Source: Candidatus Sericytochromatia bacterium
Lineage (GTDB): Bacteria; Cyanobacteriota; Sericytochromatia; S15B-MN24; UBA4093
DNA length: 64,000 bases
Reading direction: 5' to 3'
NCBI GenBank assembly: GCA_036676495.1
Contig: JAKFCT010000028.1
Coordinates: 1 to 64,000 of the forward strand
A program made the position numbers and the translations under genes. Positions 8,164 to 50,808 of this stretch are shown piece after piece. The notes under the pieces are model-generated. The model made no database searches. It was not told the DNA's origin and worked only from the letters and a program-made list of their open reading frames with translations. Position 1 is the first letter of the stretch; each line of letters opens with the position of its first letter.

Positions 8164-8259
8164 TTTGCCTTCATGGCGCATTGCGCCAAGATGAATCTTT
8201 CGTTTGTTTGCTGAAAGCTAGGCCTCTTTGGGGAATAATACCTCCAGGAGGTGATGCGT

Positions 8260-8733
8260 ATGCAGGTTCTCGTGCTCAGTAACACCTATCAGCCCCTGTA
8301 CACCTGCGGGGTCGAAAAGGCAGTCACGCTGCTGTTCCTGGGGAAAGCGGTCTCGGTCCGGGACTCTGATCAGGTGATTCGGTCCCCCTCGGTGGCCCTT
8401 CCGATTCCCGAAGCGATCCGGTTGCTGGTGAAGGCCATCGTCCACCGCTACTACGAAACCATGCGGCCCACCCGGTCGGCGATCTTCAAGCGCGACAAAC
8501 ATGTTTGTCAGTACTGCGGCTCGCGCAACGATCTCACCATCGACCACGTCCACCCCAAGAGCCGGGGCGGCGAGGATACCTGGGAGAACCTTACGACGGC
8601 TTGCCAAAAATGCAACAACCGTAAGGGGGATCGGCGCCCCGAAGAGGCTGGCATGCTCCTGGCGAGCAGTCCAAAAGCTCCAAGAGCCATCGAGGTGGCC
8701 TCCGACCTCTGGTCGAAACTCATGGGTTGGTAG
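8260..8733 (+). CDS. Stand-alone HNH endonuclease (McrA/HNH_5 type)
   Basis: VLVLSNTYQPL, IFKRDKHVCQYCG, LTIDHVHPKSRGG, WENLTTACQKCNNRKG. Confidence 0.9.
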   Translation: MQVLVLSNTYQPLYTCGVEKAVTLLFLGKAVSVRDSDQVIRSPSVALPIPEAIRLLVKAIVHRYYETMRPTRSAIFKRDKHVCQYCGSRNDLTIDHVHPKSRGGEDTWENLTTACQKCNNRKGDRRPEEAGMLLASSPKAPRAIEVASDLWSKLMGW

Positions 8734-8791: not shown

Positions 8792-9796
8792 TTAGCGCGC
8801 CTTGAGCCAGCGCGCCGCCTCGAGCGCATGGTAGGTGATGAGGATATCCGCGCCGGCCCGCTTGAGGCCGACGAGGGTCTCCAGCACTAGGCGCTGCTCG
8901 TCAATCCAGCCCCGCTCGGCCGCGGCCTTCACCATGGCGTACTCGCCCGAGACGTTGTAGGCTGCGACCGGCCGGTCGGTCATCTCCTTGACCCGCCAGA
9001 TGATGTCCATGTACGCGAGCGCCGGCTTCACCATCACGATGTCGGCCCCCTCGCCGAGGTCCAGGCTGACCTCCTTGAGCGCCTCGCGGGCGTTGGCGGG
9101 ATCCATCTGGTAGCTGCGGCGATCGCCGAACGCCGGAGCCGACTCCGCCGCCTCCCGGAACGGCCCGTAGTAGCTCGACGCGTACTTCGCCGAGTAGGCC
9201 ATCACCGGCACCGAGGCGAAGCCCGCCGAGTCCAGGGCCTGACGGATCGCTCCGATCCGGCCGTCCATCATATCCGAAGGCGCCACCATGTCCGCTCCCG
9301 CCGCCGCATGGCTCAGGGCCGTCTTCACGAGCAGCTCCACCGAGGGATCGTTGAGCAGCTCTTCGCCCTCGATGACTCCGCAGTGGCCGTGCGAGGTGTA
9401 CTCGCAAAGGCAGACGTCCGTGACCACCAGCAGCTCGGGCAGGGCCTGCTTGAGCGCCCGAACGCCTTCCTGGACGATCCCGTTGGGATCGTACGCACCC
9501 GACGCTTCCAGGTCCTTTTCCGGCGGAATCCCGAAGAGGATCACGCCTCCCACTCCGAGCTCCGCGGCCTCTCTCGCTTCCTTGACGGCTTCGTCGAGGG
9601 AGAGCTGGGCGATGCCCGGCATCGAGCCGATCGGCTTGCGGATGCCGCTGCCCGGCACCAGGAACATGGGGTAGAGGAAGTCGCCCGCGTCGAGGGTGGT
9701 CTCGCGCACCAGGCGGCGCATGGGCTCGGACATGCGCAGGCGCCGGCCCCGAAGGGCCGGGAACCCGGCAGGACGCACGATCGTAGATTGGCTCAT
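8792..9796 (-). CDS. hemB: Porphobilinogen synthase (Zn-type)
   Basis: DVCLCEYTSHGHCG, APSDMMDGR, YQMDPAN, GADIVMVKP, AYNVSGEYAM. Confidence 0.97.
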   Translation of the reverse strand: MSQSTIVRPAGFPALRGRRLRMSEPMRRLVRETTLDAGDFLYPMFLVPGSGIRKPIGSMPGIAQLSLDEAVKEAREAAELGVGGVILFGIPPEKDLEASGAYDPNGIVQEGVRALKQALPELLVVTDVCLCEYTSHGHCGVIEGEELLNDPSVELLVKTALSHAAAGADMVAPSDMMDGRIGAIRQALDSAGFASVPVMAYSAKYASSYYGPFREAAESAPAFGDRRSYQMDPANAREALKEVSLDLGEGADIVMVKPALAYMDIIWRVKEMTDRPVAAYNVSGEYAMVKAAAERGWIDEQRLVLETLVGLKRAGADILITYHALEAARWLKAR

Positions 9797-9798
9797 GG

Positions 9799-11628
<1,830 letters not shown>

Positions 11629-11732
11629 GGAGTCTTCATCCTTAATTTTGTAGAGGGAAGTCATGGCCGATGGCCAGGTGTCATTGTACAATGGCGCCAA
11701 AGGCCGGGCAACCCGGCTCTCTGGTAGGTCTA

Positions 11733-12887
11733 ATGCCCATCGACATCCTCTTTATCAGCAACGGCCATGGCGAAGATTTGATCGCCGCCCGCATCGCCCA
11801 GGAGCTCTCGGATCTGGACGTACGGGGCTTTCCCATGGTGGGAGACGGCGACGCGTACCTGAAGGCCAGCATTCCGGTGGTCGGCCCCCGCCAGGCCATG
11901 CCCAGCGGGGGGTTCATCCTGCGCGACGCCGCGGCCCTGCGTGCCGACATGCGGGCGGGCCTCGGCAAGCTGGCCTGGGATCAGCTGCGCTTCCTGACTT
12001 CCATGGATCCCCCGCGCATGATCGTCGCCGTGGGCGACATGCTGCCGGTGGCGGCCTCGCTCTTGCTTCCGAGCGAGCGGGTGCTCATCGGCTGCAACAA
12101 AACGGACTTCTATACCAGCTGGGGATCGGCGTACCTGAGCGTGGAGATCGCGCTCTTCAAGCTGGCGGGCGTGACCGTCTACCCGCGCGATCCCTTGACC
12201 CATGCGCGCCTCGCCAGGCGCGGCGTCCGCAGCGCGTCGCTGGGCAACCCCATGATGGACGGGCTGGATCCGCGCTGGCCCGGCGAGCCGGGGGTGGTGG
12301 GCGTCCTGCCGGGAAGCCGCCCGGAGGCCTTCGATAACTTCGCTGCGATCCTGCCCTGCCTGGAGGCCCTGGGGCGCATGCGGCCCTTCGAGGCCCTCTT
12401 GGCGGCTCCACGCACGCTGGATCCGCGTGGCTGGGAGGCGATCGCCCGGGAAGCGGGCTGGGAGGTCGGGCCGGAGGCCTTCCGGAAGGGGGAGCTGATC
12501 CTGCGCCGCGACCATGGCTTCGCGGACGTCCTGCGCCGGTCGCAGGTGGTCCTGGGGCTGGCGGGAACGGCCAACGAGCAAGCGGTCGGCTGCGGCCGGC
12601 CGGTGGTGGCCTTTGCGGGCAAGGGCCCCCAGTACAATCCGCTCTTCGCCAAGCTGCAAGCCGAGCTGCTAGGTCCCGGCCTCGAGGTGACGGACGGAGA
12701 CCCCGAGCACGTGGCCGCGGCGATCTCCCGGGCCTTCGACCCGGCTCGACAAGCCGCCGCGCGCGCGGCCGGCCGCGAACGCATGGGAGAGCCGGGCTCC
12801 GCCGCGCGGATCGCGGGATCGCTTCGCCAAAAACTCGGTGGAAAGCCGATCCCCCGGGATCTCAAAAAAGCCTTTACTTTTCCTTAA
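11733..12887 (+). CDS. Lipid-A-disaccharide-synthase-related glycosyltransferase (TIGR03492-like)
   Basis: ILFISNGHGEDLIA, MPSGGF, LGNPMMDGL, LPGSRPEA, AGTANEQAVG, GPQY motifs. Confidence 0.8.
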   Translation: MPIDILFISNGHGEDLIAARIAQELSDLDVRGFPMVGDGDAYLKASIPVVGPRQAMPSGGFILRDAAALRADMRAGLGKLAWDQLRFLTSMDPPRMIVAVGDMLPVAASLLLPSERVLIGCNKTDFYTSWGSAYLSVEIALFKLAGVTVYPRDPLTHARLARRGVRSASLGNPMMDGLDPRWPGEPGVVGVLPGSRPEAFDNFAAILPCLEALGRMRPFEALLAAPRTLDPRGWEAIAREAGWEVGPEAFRKGELILRRDHGFADVLRRSQVVLGLAGTANEQAVGCGRPVVAFAGKGPQYNPLFAKLQAELLGPGLEVTDGDPEHVAAAISRAFDPARQAAARAAGRERMGEPGSAARIAGSLRQKLGGKPIPRDLKKAFTFP

Positions 12888-12975
12888 AGTTGGGTTAATT
12901 TGAGTATAACCCCGGACCCTCCCACACGGTCCTGCCTCAACGACGCACGGCACCCTGCCCGCCAAGGAGAGATGC

Positions 12976-13989
12976 ATGCAATTGACCTCGCTTCCGGTGA
13001 TCGAGCGGCTTGGAACTGGTAAACTCCGTCCGGCCTCCCCCGAGTCGAAAACCGGCAGGCCCTTTGCCTCGCCCAAGGAGATCTTGGTACAGACGCGGCT
13101 CGCGGCCCCCGAGGGCTTGCGCCAGCTCGCGTGGAAGGACGCGCTCTCGCTGACGCGTCCGCGGCAATGGGTGCTTCCGATGGGAGCCATGCTGGCGGGC
13201 TCGCTGGCGGCCGGTTGCGGGGATCACCTGATGGCGACCTGGCCCCAGCTGCTGCTGGGCCTGGCTTTGGTCGGTCCGCTGCTGGCGGGATCGAGCAACC
13301 TCATCAACGCGTATTTCGATCGGGATCTCGAGGCGCCGGGCGGCCTGCTTTCGTCGGGGCGGATGGCTCCGGATCTGGCGGTGGCCCAGATTGCCGTCAT
13401 GGCGCTTCTGGCGCTGGGAGCGGCGAACCTGCTGGGTCCCTGGATCTTCGGGTTGGCCATCGCGAGCGTGTTCATCTCGCTGGCGGTCAACGCGCCGCCG
13501 CTGCGGCTGCGCCGGCAGACCTGGTGGAACGGCCTCTTCCACGGGATCGCGGCGATCGCGTTCCCCTGGGTGATCGGCCACCTTCCGCACGCGGCGCTGA
13601 CGCTGAACTCCGCGATCCTGGCGGGACTCTTCGCGTTCGGCGCGATGGGCCTCCAGATCATGGCGGGCCTGACGGATGCGGATCGGGAGCGCGAGGCGGG
13701 AATCCGTTCGTTCGCGGCCCTGCTGGGCCCCGAGCTGGGGGCGCTGGTCTCCGCCTTGCTGGTGAACACCGCCATCCTGGGCGCCGCCATCCTCTGCTAC
13801 GACGGGAACGCCCTGGCGGCGTCGGGAGCGCTCTCGGTGCTCTTCGCGGTGACGCTGTCGGTGCAGTCCTCCCTGCTTTGGCGAGGAGCGCTGCGGGAGC
13901 GCTGGCCGGTGGGCCTGGTCCACGGCCTGTACATGGTCAGCATGATCATCGCGGGGGCGGCGATCGCCACGGTCACGACCTCGTTCTAG
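12976..13989 (+). CDS. UbiA-superfamily membrane protein resembling (bacterio)chlorophyll synthase ChlG/BchG, with degenerate catalytic motifs
   Basis: Multi-TM; WK..L.L.RP..W, GPLL.G, APPLRL, IAFPWVIGH, R..GIRS; first acidic motif reads NAYFDRDLE. Confidence 0.7.
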   Translation: MQLTSLPVIERLGTGKLRPASPESKTGRPFASPKEILVQTRLAAPEGLRQLAWKDALSLTRPRQWVLPMGAMLAGSLAAGCGDHLMATWPQLLLGLALVGPLLAGSSNLINAYFDRDLEAPGGLLSSGRMAPDLAVAQIAVMALLALGAANLLGPWIFGLAIASVFISLAVNAPPLRLRRQTWWNGLFHGIAAIAFPWVIGHLPHAALTLNSAILAGLFAFGAMGLQIMAGLTDADREREAGIRSFAALLGPELGALVSALLVNTAILGAAILCYDGNALAASGALSVLFAVTLSVQSSLLWRGALRERWPVGLVHGLYMVSMIIAGAAIATVTTSF

Positions 13990-14260
13990 CCCCTCACCGC
14001 TAATGCTCAGAGCCCTCGGCCCGCGCCGGGGGCTCTCAGGCATGACGACGAAACTGTTCGTCACTCTGGCCGAAGCCCGCCGAGCACGGCTTCATTACAG
14101 TCTATTAAGCAGGCAAGCCCAAACCCGCCAATTCTCCCCAGCGTCTTCACGCTTGACTAACAAAACTTTACAAAATGCTTGCCTGATGTTAACCTAGAAC
14201 TCTTCTTTCATCGTCGCCCGATCGTCCGACTGAACGCAGCCGTCAACGAGAGGAAGCATC

Positions 14261-14986
14261 ATGGCCACGAAACCCTTGACCCTTAGCCCCGTGCCGCGTC
14301 ATCCCCGGATGCGGACGTCCTTGCCGAGCCGTACCTGGCCGTGGGGACGCTTCCCGTCACGGCCCTCCGGGACGCTGACCCGCTTTGGATCGCTGTTACT
14401 AGCCGGGGGGCTGGTCTTGAGCTTGGGGGCTACGGCCCGTCTGGTGAAGGCACCGGCCCCTCAAGGGGTAACTGTGCCTCAGGGGGTTGCCTTGGCTCAG
14501 GCGCCGGCTCGGCCGCGCGTGACGCTGGACCGGATTGCTCCTCCTCCGGCGGGGCAGTATCCGTACAAGGCCTTGATCGCGGAGATGGCCGCCAAGTACG
14601 ACTTGTCGCCGGAGTTGGTGGCGGGCGTGGTCTACATCGAGAGCAACTTCGACAAGAACTCCGTGAGCCATGCGGGGGCCATCGGGCTGATGCAGCTGAT
14701 GCCGGCCACCGCAGGGCCCCTGGCCCAGCGGCTGGGGATGCGCAAGCTGGACCTGACCGATCCGCGCATGAACCTGGAACTGGGCTGTTACTTCCTGCGG
14801 CTGCTGCTGAACAAGTACGACAACCACCTTCCGACGGCGCTGAGCTACTACAACGGAGGGCGCTGGGGGATCGTGAGCCGCGGGGTCTACCGCAACCGGC
14901 GCTACATCCGCAAGGTCATGGACTCGTACTGGCGCTACGCGCAGCCGGTGTCCAACGGGTTCAGCACGGGCCAGGTGGCCCCGTGA
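14261..14986 (+). CDS. Lytic transglycosylase (SLT domain)
   Basis: IESNF, AVS-like NSVSHAGAIGLMQLMPAT, ALSYYNGG; N-terminal hydrophobic segment. Confidence 0.9.
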   Translation: MATKPLTLSPVPRHPRMRTSLPSRTWPWGRFPSRPSGTLTRFGSLLLAGGLVLSLGATARLVKAPAPQGVTVPQGVALAQAPARPRVTLDRIAPPPAGQYPYKALIAEMAAKYDLSPELVAGVVYIESNFDKNSVSHAGAIGLMQLMPATAGPLAQRLGMRKLDLTDPRMNLELGCYFLRLLLNKYDNHLPTALSYYNGGRWGIVSRGVYRNRRYIRKVMDSYWRYAQPVSNGFSTGQVAP

Positions 14987-15050
14987 TCGGGGCCTCGGTC
15001 GCCGAGCATTTCTGAGCGATTAAATCCTTATTATTTGTTCATTGAAACGA

Positions 15051-15079
15051 TTGCATCCGTTGTCGGGCTCGCCTATACT
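15051..15079 (+). promoter_or_regulatory. sigma70 promoter driving an ORF-less transcript
   Basis: TTGCAT-N17-TATACT with an AT-rich UP-like tract upstream (15020-15050). Confidence 0.75.
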
Positions 15080-15085
15080 GAGTTT

Positions 15086-15320
15086 CCGCAAGGGATGAGG
15101 CGCATGCCGAGAGGCCCGGGCCGCAAGGCCCCGGTCCGCAGGAGCGCCCCTAGCTGAAGGTGGGCATGCAGCGATCGTATGCTGTGGATGCAAATCCCCC
15201 CACAGGGTCCTCGATGGGGTCGCGGCCGAAGATTCTCCGGGATAGTCGGTAGGGCCACAGACGAACCTGACGGACCGAGGAGGCCAATCGTTCCTCGGAC
15301 GTCATCACTTCCCGCGACGC
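15086..15320 (+). ncRNA. Candidate structured non-coding RNA (~230 nt), family not recognised
   Basis: Lies between a promoter and a terminator; multiple helices, two closed by GCAA tetraloops; 5'/3' ends complementary; no credible ORF. Confidence 0.6.
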
Positions 15321-16162: not shown

Positions 16163-16951
16163 TCAGCGCGACAGGACCCAGTAAAGCGTCGACGCGGCGC
16201 GGACGTAGGGCGATCGCCAGATCCCTTCTCTCCGGGGCAAACCCTCTAGACGGGCGATCGCCTCCTTCGCCCAGGCCTCCTCGGAGCGAAAGGCCGTCAC
16301 CAGCAAGACGCCTTCGGGCGTGAGCAGGCTCCGCGCATGCCGCAGCAAGCCATCGATATCGAAGTAGGGTCTCGGCAAGGCCCAGTCGAGCAATTCCTGC
16401 TCCCTCCAGAAGGGATGCAGCAAGAGGATCACGTCGTAAGCTCCCGCGTGGGCCCGGACATCGCCCGCGCGATACTCCGCCTCCAGCCCCCGCGCATAGG
16501 CCTGCGCGTAGTCATGCCGGGTGAAGCCGTCCCGGTAACGGTGATAGGGGTCGAGCTCGATCCCGGTCATCCTCACCTCGCGGGGCACAGAGGTTCCCGC
16601 GCGACGCAGGAAGCGATACGCTCCGGGCAGGTAGTGCCAGTCCTTGGCCCCGATATCCAGCACCGAAAGCGCCGGGGGGAGGCGTTCCGCCAGGGGGCCC
16701 AGGGCCGCCTCGAGCATGCCCACCACGTGCAGGTTCTCCCGCTGGTTCTCATGGTCGTCCGGCCAATCCAGGCCGTAGCGCTGGCGCAAGCGTCCGGACG
16801 CTTGCGCCAGCTCGGTTCCCGGGGGAAAGAGCTCTTCCCACGGCTCGGCCGGCACGTTCAGGCCCGAGCGAGGACGAAACGTCAGGCGACGCCATGCAAA
16901 ACGGGCGTGGTTGAGGAGGCTCCAGAGGGCGAAAGTCGAGGAGTGGCGCAT
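16163..16951 (-). CDS. Class I SAM-dependent methyltransferase-like protein
   Basis: VLDIGAK, GIELDP, YDVILLLHPF, LLTPEGVLLV. Confidence 0.7.
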   Translation of the reverse strand: MRHSSTFALWSLLNHARFAWRRLTFRPRSGLNVPAEPWEELFPPGTELAQASGRLRQRYGLDWPDDHENQRENLHVVGMLEAALGPLAERLPPALSVLDIGAKDWHYLPGAYRFLRRAGTSVPREVRMTGIELDPYHRYRDGFTRHDYAQAYARGLEAEYRAGDVRAHAGAYDVILLLHPFWREQELLDWALPRPYFDIDGLLRHARSLLTPEGVLLVTAFRSEEAWAKEAIARLEGLPRREGIWRSPYVRAASTLYWVLSR

Positions 16952-48134: not shown

Positions 48135-48209
<75 letters not shown>

Positions 48210-50734: not shown

Positions 50735-50808
50735 CGGGACTGACGGGGCTCGAACCCGCGACCTCCGCCTTGACAGGGCGGCATTCTAACCAACTGAACT
50801 ACAGTCCC
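50735..50808 (-). tRNA. tRNA-Asp (GTC), CCA not encoded
   Basis: GGGACTGTAGTTCAGTTGGTTAGAATGCCGCCCTGTCAAGGCGGAGGTCGCGGGTTCGAGCCCCGTCAGTCCCG folds as a cloverleaf. Confidence 0.97.

Follow-up and report, generated by a model that had tools for sequence, protein, structure and literature searches.

We describe a gene at positions 12976-13989 (forward strand) of a 64,000-nucleotide stretch of DNA, hereafter the window, that covers positions 1 to 64,000 of contig JAKFCT010000028.1 of Candidatus Sericytochromatia bacterium (assembly GCA_036676495.1). Its 337-residue product, P0001, resembles the chlorophyll and bacteriochlorophyll synthases (ChlG, BchG and BchK; collectively (B)Chl synthases) but has lost several of their active-site residues. 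On sequence grounds, P0001 and its homologues belong to the (B)Chl-synthase total group, and the best reading of the clade is a new subfamily of synthase-like membrane protein. The gene is under purifying selection and is not decaying, and P0001 almost certainly does something other than chlorophyll synthesis. The clade is one of few gene-level clues on whether the sister lineages of Cyanobacteria made chlorophyll.

Family assignment and active-site residues

The features of the gene and of its upstream region are the following.

12860..12969, + strand: upstream region with an AT-rich island (12860-12912) and the Shine-Dalgarno sequence AAGGAG (12964-12969), read from the sequence
12976..13989, + strand: coding sequence of P0001, a 337-residue degenerate (B)Chl-synthase-like UbiA-fold membrane protein (open frame, Pfam UbiA, NCBIfam, PDB, AlphaFold2 (AF2), Foldseek)
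12976..13008, + strand: N-terminal peptide particular to the clade, MQLTSLPVIER here and MQLRSFPV..R in the clade consensus, with predicted disorder (clade alignment; AF2 predicted local distance difference test, pLDDT)
13306..13338, + strand: what is left of the first Asp-rich motif, N111 A112 Y F D115 R D L E119 A - - - P121, with a shorter cap loop (alignment to ChlG)
13486..13515, + strand: V171-N-A-P-P-L-R177-L-R179-R, equivalent of ChlG Y159-SAPPLKLK167 (alignment; R179 in 19/21 clade members)
13549..13569, + strand: A192-A193-I-A-F-P-W198, equivalent of ChlG S-Y181-I182-A-L-P-W (alignment; W198 invariant in clade and canonical synthases)
13663..13689, + strand: A230 G231 L T233 D A D R E238, what is left of the second Asp-rich motif (alignment to ChlG)
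13726..13791, + strand: clade-specific stretch G-P-E253-L-G255 ... N-T265-A-I-L-G-A-A-I272, in the helix after the second cap loop (clade alignment)

P0001 belongs to the UbiA superfamily, with 59.7 bits against the Pfam UbiA profile (PF01040; cut-off 34.2). Its four top-scoring NCBIfam hidden Markov models (HMMs) are all (B)Chl synthases, namely PRK07566 (138.9 bits), TIGR01476 (128.8), TIGR02056 (69.5) and PRK12392 (62.4), and the next-best other UbiA model is the DGGGPS-like PRK12884 (42.1 bits). All four synthase scores lie under the curated cut-offs of their models (313, 212.3, 436.45 and 494, respectively). The scores of eight further clade members also lie under the cut-offs (TIGR01476 50-162 bits, PRK07566 58-181 bits); canonical control proteins pass them (NCBIfam scans of 15 canonical rows). 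(B)Chl-synthase HMMs nevertheless ranked first in 9/9 clade members tested (58-181 bits), reaching at least 2.7 times the score of the best DGGGPS-like model where one was listed. Some non-chlorophyll UbiA proteins attain 90-147 bits on PRK07566, yet their scores on DGGGPS-like models are just as high (P0059: 147 vs 142 bits); by contrast, P0001 scores 139 vs 42 bits.

Pairwise comparisons gave the same assignment. P0001 aligns collinearly over its residues 53-290 with PDB entry 9sas_C, 'Chlorophyll a synthase' (HMMER E 2.2e-18). An initial annotation of this DNA had matched P0001 to ChlG segment by segment, and every one of its pairs reappears in this alignment: WKDALSLTRPRQW/WKIRLQLMKPITW, LVGPLLAG/LSGPLMTG, AVAQI/VVTQI, NAPPLRLRRQTWW/SAPPLKLKQNGWL, IAFPWVIGH/IALPWWAGH and REAGIRSF/RQLGLKSL. 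By BLASTP, 27/27 clade rows score higher against BchG, ChlG and BchK, with approximately equal values for the three, than against the remaining UbiA proteins. The top-scoring canonical protein for P0001 is the BchG-type P0020 (29% identity, E 1.1e-23).

The AF2 model of P0001 (pLDDT 83.5, predicted template modeling score 0.80; residues 1-50 disordered, pLDDT <50) has nine predicted helices in a UbiA fold, as does ChlG of Synechocystis (PDB 9sas/9sau, TIGR02056). Its top Foldseek matches are UbiA-fold structures, led by 7bpu_A (E 1.1e-5): the archaeal DGGGPS (7bpu, 6m31) and UbiA homologues (AfUbiA 4tq3, ApUbiA 4od5), all at probability 1.00 (E 1e-5 to 6e-4, template modeling score ~0.62-0.70 on target), as well as UBIAD1 (8djk, 'HMGCR-UBIAD1 complex') and the membrane phosphoribosyltransferase 8j8j. 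The ChlG entry was not among the matches in the PDB library used (to April 2026), and this structural ranking covers entries other than ChlG. The archaeal proteins differ from P0001 in sequence: they are 14-20% identical, the PRK12884 score is 42 bits, the trees separate them at 97-98% and they keep both Asp-rich motifs. ESM Atlas matches were generic UbiA and ChlG-family clusters only. HMMs, BLASTP and the maximum-likelihood (ML) trees described below all favor the (B)Chl synthases over DGGGPS, UbiA and MenA, the comparison on which the initial annotation had staked its assignment, and support a (B)Chl-synthase-like P0001 that is not DGGGPS-, UbiA- or MenA-like.

Residues were mapped on Synechocystis ChlG, numbered as PDB chain index + 29; since this offset reproduces the residue numbers of a recent preprint, the ChlG-to-P0001 mapping is secure. 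According to the accessible portion of that preprint (10.64898/2026.05.13.724888), N89, D90, D93 and D97 contact diphosphate/Mg2+, K39, R104 and K167 contact diphosphate, and D219 and D226 form the second Mg2+ site. Y159 and Y181 lie beside the reactive prenyl carbon and the substrate C17-C18 bond, N218, K221, Q301 and Q305 are predicted chlorophyllide contacts, and I44 is a substrate gate at which BchG has Phe; 14/16 alanine mutants of ChlG made <=1% product (10.64898/2026.05.13.724888). The positions correspond as follows.

ChlG K39, P0001 R61: conservative
ChlG I44, P0001 V66: small aliphatic residue kept
ChlG N89, P0001 N111: kept
ChlG D90, P0001 A112: lost
ChlG D93, P0001 D115: kept
ChlG D97, P0001 E119: conservative
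ChlG R104, P0001 G123: lost, next to a 3-residue deletion
ChlG Y159, P0001 V171: lost
ChlG K165/K167, P0001 R177/R179: conservative
ChlG Y181, P0001 A193: lost
ChlG N218, P0001 A230: lost
ChlG D219, P0001 G231: lost
ChlG K221, P0001 T233: lost
ChlG D226, P0001 E238: conservative

Residues were counted over 21 non-redundant clade members (<90% identity, from 27 rows) and 43 canonical synthases. The position of D90 holds Asp in 0/21 clade members vs 43/43 canonical synthases, those of Y159 and Y181 hold Tyr in 0/21 vs 40/43 each, and that of D219 holds Asp in 0/21 vs 37/43. Asn at the N89 position is found in 14/21 clade members, and Asp or Glu at that of D93 in 20/21. The Arg following D93 (ChlG R94) is kept in P0001 as R116, the equivalent of Q305 is mostly kept in the clade by our own reading of the alignment, and the gate position holds V, L or A, not the Phe of BchG. 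P0001 thus has neither the first ChlG motif (N89-D90-x-x-D93-x-x-x-D97 followed by AINEPxR104P) nor the second (N218-D219-F-K221-x-x-x-G-D226, replaced by A230-G-L-T-D-A-D-R-E238). The two Asp-rich Mg2+/diphosphate motifs of the UbiA superfamily are likewise not found in it, with the first partly kept (N, D, E). The leading Asp of the second motif is gone in 21/21 clade members, and other UbiA relatives examined keep an Asp there.

The initial annotation had called both motifs eroded. For the second this was borne out, NDFKSVEGD aligning to AGLTDADRE (residues 230-238, 13663-13689). For the first, NDFYDRDIDAINEP does align to NAYFDRDLEA---P (residues 111-121, 13306-13338), but the erosion is smaller than claimed, with N-A-x-x-D-x-x-x-D also found in P0059 and P0114. 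Less derived members (P0016, P0017 and P0018) retain ...DRDIDAINSPDRPLPSG and ...EGDRR, so what the whole clade has lost is D90, the Tyr pair and the N-D that opens the second motif, and further decay is lineage-specific.

Taken against each canonical enzyme, P0001 shows both likeness and difference. It shares with ChlG the segments GP, D93-R, APPL(K/R)L(K/R), PW..G and G(I/L)(R/K)S as well as the small aliphatic residue at the gate; unlike ChlG, it has a 3-residue deletion in the first cap loop, an extra conserved N-terminal peptide and replacements at D90, R104, Y159, Y181, N218, D219 and K221. BchG provides the highest-scoring HMMs and canonical proteins, and sisterhood with it is left unrejected by the topology tests below; unlike BchG, P0001 has no gate Phe, shows the same catalytic losses and falls outside BchG in the ML trees. 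BchK-like synthases lie on the same superfamily branch with BLAST scores similar to those of ChlG and BchG, and differ from P0001 by the score on PRK12392 given above.

Two further observations concern individual rows. P0086 and P0087, isolated metagenome representatives in the BchG clade, likewise show damage in their Asp-rich motifs (NNW.SDRS and PRHFGS in P0086, for example), and degenerate synthase-like proteins may have arisen more than once. Members from one family of the order (f4; P0016, P0017 and loci L038-L040, L043, L044 and L046) carry an insertion of ~20 residues (…EEGLGTHLDSRLGLGTSDADG…) in the same loop as the ~11-residue insertion that sets ChlG-type apart from BchG-type rows.

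Distribution, selection and genomic background

An exhaustive HMMER search of 1.84 billion representatives returned 210 matches at E <= 1e-3, 5 of them at E <= 1e-30. Among the 150 matches listed were nine full-length clade representatives (P0009, P0014-P0019, P0040 and P0047), which share the N-terminus MQL(R/T)S(F/L)P and have neither ND..D...D nor NDFK. The fragment P0054 was left out of this comparison, and P0040 and P0047 represent distant members without a known genome. P0001 has orthologues with 87% and 83% identity in Candidatus Sericytochromatia genomes of the window's genus, which bears out the lineage that the initial annotation had supposed. Overall, a homologue was found in 17/47 Sericytochromatia genomes, all in the window's order (families f1, 8/9; f3, 1/1; f4, 7/8), and in none of the sister family f2 (0/8) or of three families outside the order (0/20). 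When the phylum was searched with P0016, a less derived member, 72/151 genomes gave matches: the same Sericytochromatia and every genome from twenty other families (55/55; E 1e-30 to 1e-36, 29-34% identity). The matches in those twenty families are presumably ChlG of phototrophic cyanobacteria. In two further families of the phylum, 0/52 and 0/2 genomes matched. Gene-tree clades coincide with the genome families f1, f3 and f4, which argues for vertical descent within the order.

The gene is intact in 17 genomes at a divergence down to 33-46% identity, and no stop codons were found in the matches across them. The ratio of nonsynonymous to synonymous substitution rates (dN/dS, NG86) within the genus, a check that the initial annotation had proposed among orthologues, is 0.126-0.169 and indicates maintenance by selection. 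The corresponding values are 0.130-0.165 for the neighboring hemB, 0.096-0.118 for glmS and 0.24-0.30 for the SLT-domain gene.

The clade also has conserved features of its own. Positions M1, P7, R11, G154, R179, F219, L232, A248, E253, G255, T265 and I272 are conserved in the clade and lacking in canonical synthases. In the N-terminal peptide, absent from the 43 canonical synthases, M1 is found in 19/21, P7 in 20/21 and R11 in 18/21 clade members, and a search of the other open reading frame (ORF) starts of the genome for this motif found none besides P0001 itself. Past the second cap loop, residue 253 is E or D in 21/21 and G255, T265 and I272 are each present in 21/21; the last three are rare in the 43 canonical synthases. 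At two loci of one genus, g4 (L041 = G016:C144; L042 = G015:C95), QLRAFPV is preceded by Leu, not Met, inside a longer frame, which points to a start codon other than ATG or to an extended N-terminus in this genus.

The initial annotation had reported no photosynthesis genes in the window, and the statement extends to the whole 4.14-Mb genome assembly, which is 91.9% complete, so that absences are limited by incompleteness. A profile search for Mg-chelatase, ChlM, ChlP, reaction-center and Hlip genes (BchI, BchH, BchM, BchP, Photo_RC, PsaA/B and Chloroa_b-bind) found no match over cut-off. Unlike hosts of ChlG, this genome therefore has no chlorophyllide pathway, Hlip partner or reaction centers over cut-off. 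Soo et al. in 2017 reportedly found no photosynthesis genes in Sericytochromatia. Other UbiA genes of the genome encode a heme O synthase, MenA and one unassigned prenyltransferase; with heme O synthase and MenA as separate genes, the canonical UbiA jobs are covered elsewhere. The gene menA (1,4-dihydroxy-2-naphthoate polyprenyltransferase) appears split over two contig ends (G000:C13:18353-18487, L007, and G000:C33:8-709, L004), so these contigs, C13 and C33, are probably adjacent. The fourth UbiA-family gene encodes 329 residues (G000:C33:40205-40900; L006:1414-2400, - strand); its only matches are to PRK13592 (99 bits, cut-off 443) and to PRK05951 (69 bits).

Automatic pipelines have labeled such proteins as 'chlorophyll synthase' (source names of P0003 and P0005) or, in the longer form, 'bacteriochlorophyll/chlorophyll a synthase'. 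A reader might wrongly take these names to mean that Sericytochromatia are phototrophic, but the clade falls short of each sequence criterion for a (B)Chl synthase. We found no description of the clade in the full-text literature, though supplementary gene tables may hold entries. The accessible portions of PMC9066304, PMC5972617, PMC10156173 and 10.1101/2025.02.17.634645 contain no mention of it.

Phylogenetic placement and origin

Group labels were taken from FastTree clades of 115 rows, anchored by the 15 scanned canonical rows. The ChlG equivalog cut-off is exceeded by P0028 alone; P0020, P0021, P0025, P0026, P0027 and P0031 pass PRK07566 and not TIGR02056, and the 'BchK' label is approximate for P0032, P0038, P0044 and P0068, which score 232-242 bits, under the BchK cut-off. 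ML trees were inferred with IQ-TREE (LG+C20+F+G4 PMSF) from 49 of the 115 rows, including 12 clade rows and 11 other UbiA proteins, and again from 41 rows, in which five slower-evolving members represented the clade and the longest outgroup row was left out. The degenerate clade is monophyletic (100/99 in the 49-row tree) and groups with the canonical synthases against other UbiA proteins at 98/94 (49 rows) and 97/96 (41 rows; ultrafast bootstrap 97-98 across the two trees). Both trees place it as sister to all crown ChlG, BchG and BchK. Canonical monophyly, however, is supported at 92/93 with 12 clade rows and at 57/22 with 5. Approximately unbiased (AU) tests left unrejected both the grouping of the clade with ChlG (delta log-likelihood (lnL) 5.8, p 0.22) and that with BchG (delta lnL 6.9, p 0.151). 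With 0.67 substitutions per site the stem of the clade is long, and long-branch effects may well bear on where exactly the clade attaches among these sequences.

The initial annotation had offered a choice between a relic of phototrophic ancestry and a horizontal acquisition. Neither was rejected by the AU tests, yet the choice was incomplete, in that the ML trees favor a third option, an old sister lineage. We tentatively lean toward the sister lineage of all (B)Chl synthases as the origin of the clade. It would then be a stem or early offshoot of the synthase family that became fixed before three Sericytochromatia families diverged, and it may have reached their ancestor vertically, by transfer or as an old paralogue. 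Being coherent, selected, specific to one order and grouped with, perhaps beside, all (B)Chl synthases, the subfamily would also be a natural outgroup for rooting synthase trees.

That the ancestor of the order acquired a bchG horizontally from an anoxygenic phototroph, and that loss of catalysis and fast evolution then pulled the clade to the base of the tree, is a somewhat doubtful account. The confinement of the gene to a single order (17/47 Sericytochromatia genomes) fits it, as do the long stem, the unrejected grouping with BchG and the ranking of P0001's best canonical matches, in which the BchG-type P0020-P0027 precede the first ChlG-type protein, P0028. Similarly, the W-x-x-P-M-x-A that follows the K39 equivalent resembles BchG-type rows in our own reading of the alignment. 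However, the ML topology is sister to all synthases and not nested, the less derived L036 and P0016 score ChlG and BchK as high as BchG, and no donor lineage is identifiable. The composition of the gene is fully native, which speaks against transfer as well, though it is expected for an old event.

Still less likely, and in our view quite improbable, is a vestige of a true ChlG that goes back to a chlorophyll-making ancestor shared by Cyanobacteriia and Sericytochromatia and was kept for a secondary role once phototrophy had been lost. The clade does belong to the same phylum as the ChlG-bearing cyanobacteria, its grouping with ChlG is not rejected by the AU test, canonical monophyly drops to 57/22 with the five slower-evolving members, and the gate residue (V, L or A) is unlike the Phe described for BchG in the accessible text of the preprint (10.64898/2026.05.13.724888). 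Yet both ML trees put the clade outside all crown synthases, BLAST scores against ChlG, BchG and BchK are approximately equal, and no other vestige of the chlorophyll pathway was found in the genome. Moreover, no homologues were found in f2 (0/8), in other Sericytochromatia families (0/20) or in two further families of the phylum (0/54), so that a ChlG relic would need many losses.

We also consider a broader claim, which we regard as rather improbable: that the clade is the closest surviving relative of all (B)Chl synthases, confined to a non-phototrophic sister class of Cyanobacteria, and either a vestige of a chlorophyll-making ancestor of the phylum or the descendant of a pre-photosynthetic membrane protein that was later recruited. 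If the vestige were true, phototrophy would have been lost in Sericytochromatia. Either version would provide an assayable handle on the origin of tetrapyrrole esterification and membrane-bound phototrophy.

Function and gene neighborhood

We favor, with some reserve, the reading of P0001 as a catalytically dead, repurposed membrane protein of the (B)Chl-synthase lineage that acts as a lipid-binding adaptor or sensor, not as an enzyme. It very probably cannot esterify (bacterio)chlorophyllide, and it likely cannot ionize any prenyl diphosphate either. In this inner-membrane UbiA-fold protein the second Mg2+/diphosphate motif, D90, R104, Y159 and Y181 are gone, and its cavity would still bind an anionic isoprenoid or similar lipid head group with no turnover. 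Such binding is suggested by the retention of D93/R94 and of three basic diphosphate-contact positions (the K39, K165 and K167 equivalents). A partner may dock on the disordered N-terminal peptide and on the clade-specific residues after the second cap loop. The clade is inherited vertically in one order of non-phototrophic Sericytochromatia, and no chlorophyllide source was detected in the genome. A works-like analogy may be drawn with UBIAD1, a UbiA-fold protein with geranylgeraniol-responsive binding of HMG-CoA reductase and a regulatory role, as described in the accessible part of PMC4374513; unlike P0001, UBIAD1 is an active prenyltransferase with intact motifs, and the homology is limited to the superfamily. 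The initial annotation had proposed a catalytically altered pseudo-enzyme or a pigment/tetrapyrrole-binding scaffold: the former fits the residue losses and the selection on the gene, and the latter is unsupported, the predicted chlorophyllide contacts N218 and K221 being replaced. The clade is a test case for the repurposing of a membrane enzyme after loss of catalysis.

Several points weigh against a dead enzyme. The identity of the 16 mutated ChlG residues is inferred from the text of the preprint, in its accessible portion (10.64898/2026.05.13.724888). N-A-x-x-D-x-x-x-D is also present in UbiA relatives with an intact second motif (P0059 and P0114), so the first motif of P0001 may retain the ability to bind a single Mg2+. 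The second cap loop still has acidic residues (D234, D236, E238 and E240), residue 253 is always acidic, and a relocated metal site in P0001 is conceivable from its sequence. Finally, the conserved synteny with glmS and the SLT-domain gene may be mere general collinearity within the order.

The corresponding alternative, that P0001 is still an enzyme, namely a UbiA-family transferase with a rebuilt metal/diphosphate site and a substrate other than (bacterio)chlorophyllide, such as a quinone, lipid or envelope precursor, appears unlikely. Purifying selection equal to that on housekeeping neighbors would fit it, as would the N..D...D/E spacing of other UbiA relatives kept by N111, D115 and E119, the basic residues kept at the K39, K165 and K167 positions together with R116, the acidic residue 253 and the acidic residues of the second loop, and the envelope genes glmS and SLT next door. 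However, the second-motif Asp and the Tyr of YSxPP are both lost in 21/21 clade members, and the other UbiA relatives examined keep both. The first motif is variable within the clade, with its Asn in 14/21 and lost or deleted in P0015, P0019, P0040 and P0047, which is unlike a shared catalytic site. No co-distributed partner enzyme was found, the nearby TIGR03492 gene being ubiquitous. As for a decaying pseudogene or an annotation artefact of GC-rich DNA, eroded catalytic motifs and the many spurious ORFs that overlap in this 66.5%-GC window would speak for it, but the dN/dS of 0.13-0.17, the intact frame in 17 genomes at 33-46% identity, the strong Shine-Dalgarno sequence, the confident fold and the clade-specific invariant residues make it hardly credible.

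Returning to the gene itself, its frame is uninterrupted over 337 codons (12976-13989, + strand), as the initial annotation had stated, and begins 6 nt downstream of the strong AAGGAG Shine-Dalgarno sequence. Its GC content at third codon positions (0.88) matches the native composition. Many spurious long ORFs overlap it; one of them, of 375 residues on the opposite strand, was rejected as being without support, the + frame having the Pfam UbiA match (59.7 bits). Scanning for consensus promoters gave no + strand site ahead of the gene, and a terminator scan of 11400-15200 found 0 sites. A promoter may lie in the AT-rich upstream region, whose island at 12860-12912 stands out in the otherwise GC-rich window. 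Rfam at gathering threshold identified across the whole window only two tRNA genes (48136-48209 and 50735-50808, - strand), none near the gene. Among sequencing data sets listed as containing this DNA, three were metagenomic DNA sets and none was of RNA.

The neighboring genes are the following.

8251-8733, + strand: HNH endonuclease of 160 residues, adjoining hemB (conserved beside hemB-glmS in 11 lineage groups of the order)
8792-9796, - strand: hemB (Pfam ALAD, 492 bits), 3.2 kb from the ChlG-like gene
9799..11625, - strand: glmS, divergent from the ChlG-like gene (named from translation and conservation, not from an HMM)
11670..12887, + strand: lipid-A-disaccharide-synthase-related gene TIGR03492 (310 bits, cut-off 219.2), an incidental upstream neighbor
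14261..14986, + strand: SLT-domain lytic transglycosylase, directly downstream (Pfam SLT, 84.3 bits)

The order HNH, hemB (-), glmS (-), ChlG-like gene (+), SLT (+) recurs across 17 loci (15 lineage groups). Within them, glmS lies at most 2 genes from the ChlG-like gene in 15/17, and in 13/17 the SLT gene follows immediately in the same orientation after a gap of 82-384 nt; it is missing in the three loci of genus g4. The sister family f2, without the ChlG-like gene, has a glmS of 65-68% identity, and the glmS-hemB pair stands in 5/5 f2 genomes examined with no ChlG-like, SLT or HNH gene alongside. The initial annotation was thus right that hemB lies nearby, but a specific linkage was rejected, the proximity reflecting a glmS-hemB pair that is kept where the ChlG-like gene is lacking. 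The TIGR03492 gene was similarly rejected as a functional partner: it is present in 41/47 genomes of the class regardless, and in carriers of the ChlG-like gene it is mostly on another contig. Among 14 control genomes, TIGR03492 was found only in Synechococcus elongatus and Deinococcus radiodurans. The synteny hints at a role in the cell envelope, though it is weak evidence of function.

Two minor observations concern other genes near the locus. The HNH gene at 8251-8733 has a dN/dS of 0.037 in the one pair measured, an unusually strong constraint for a stand-alone HNH gene. A 262-residue protein at 16163-16951 (- strand) weakly matches Methyltransf_23 (19.4 bits, under cut-off) and is found near the locus in 7 lineage groups.

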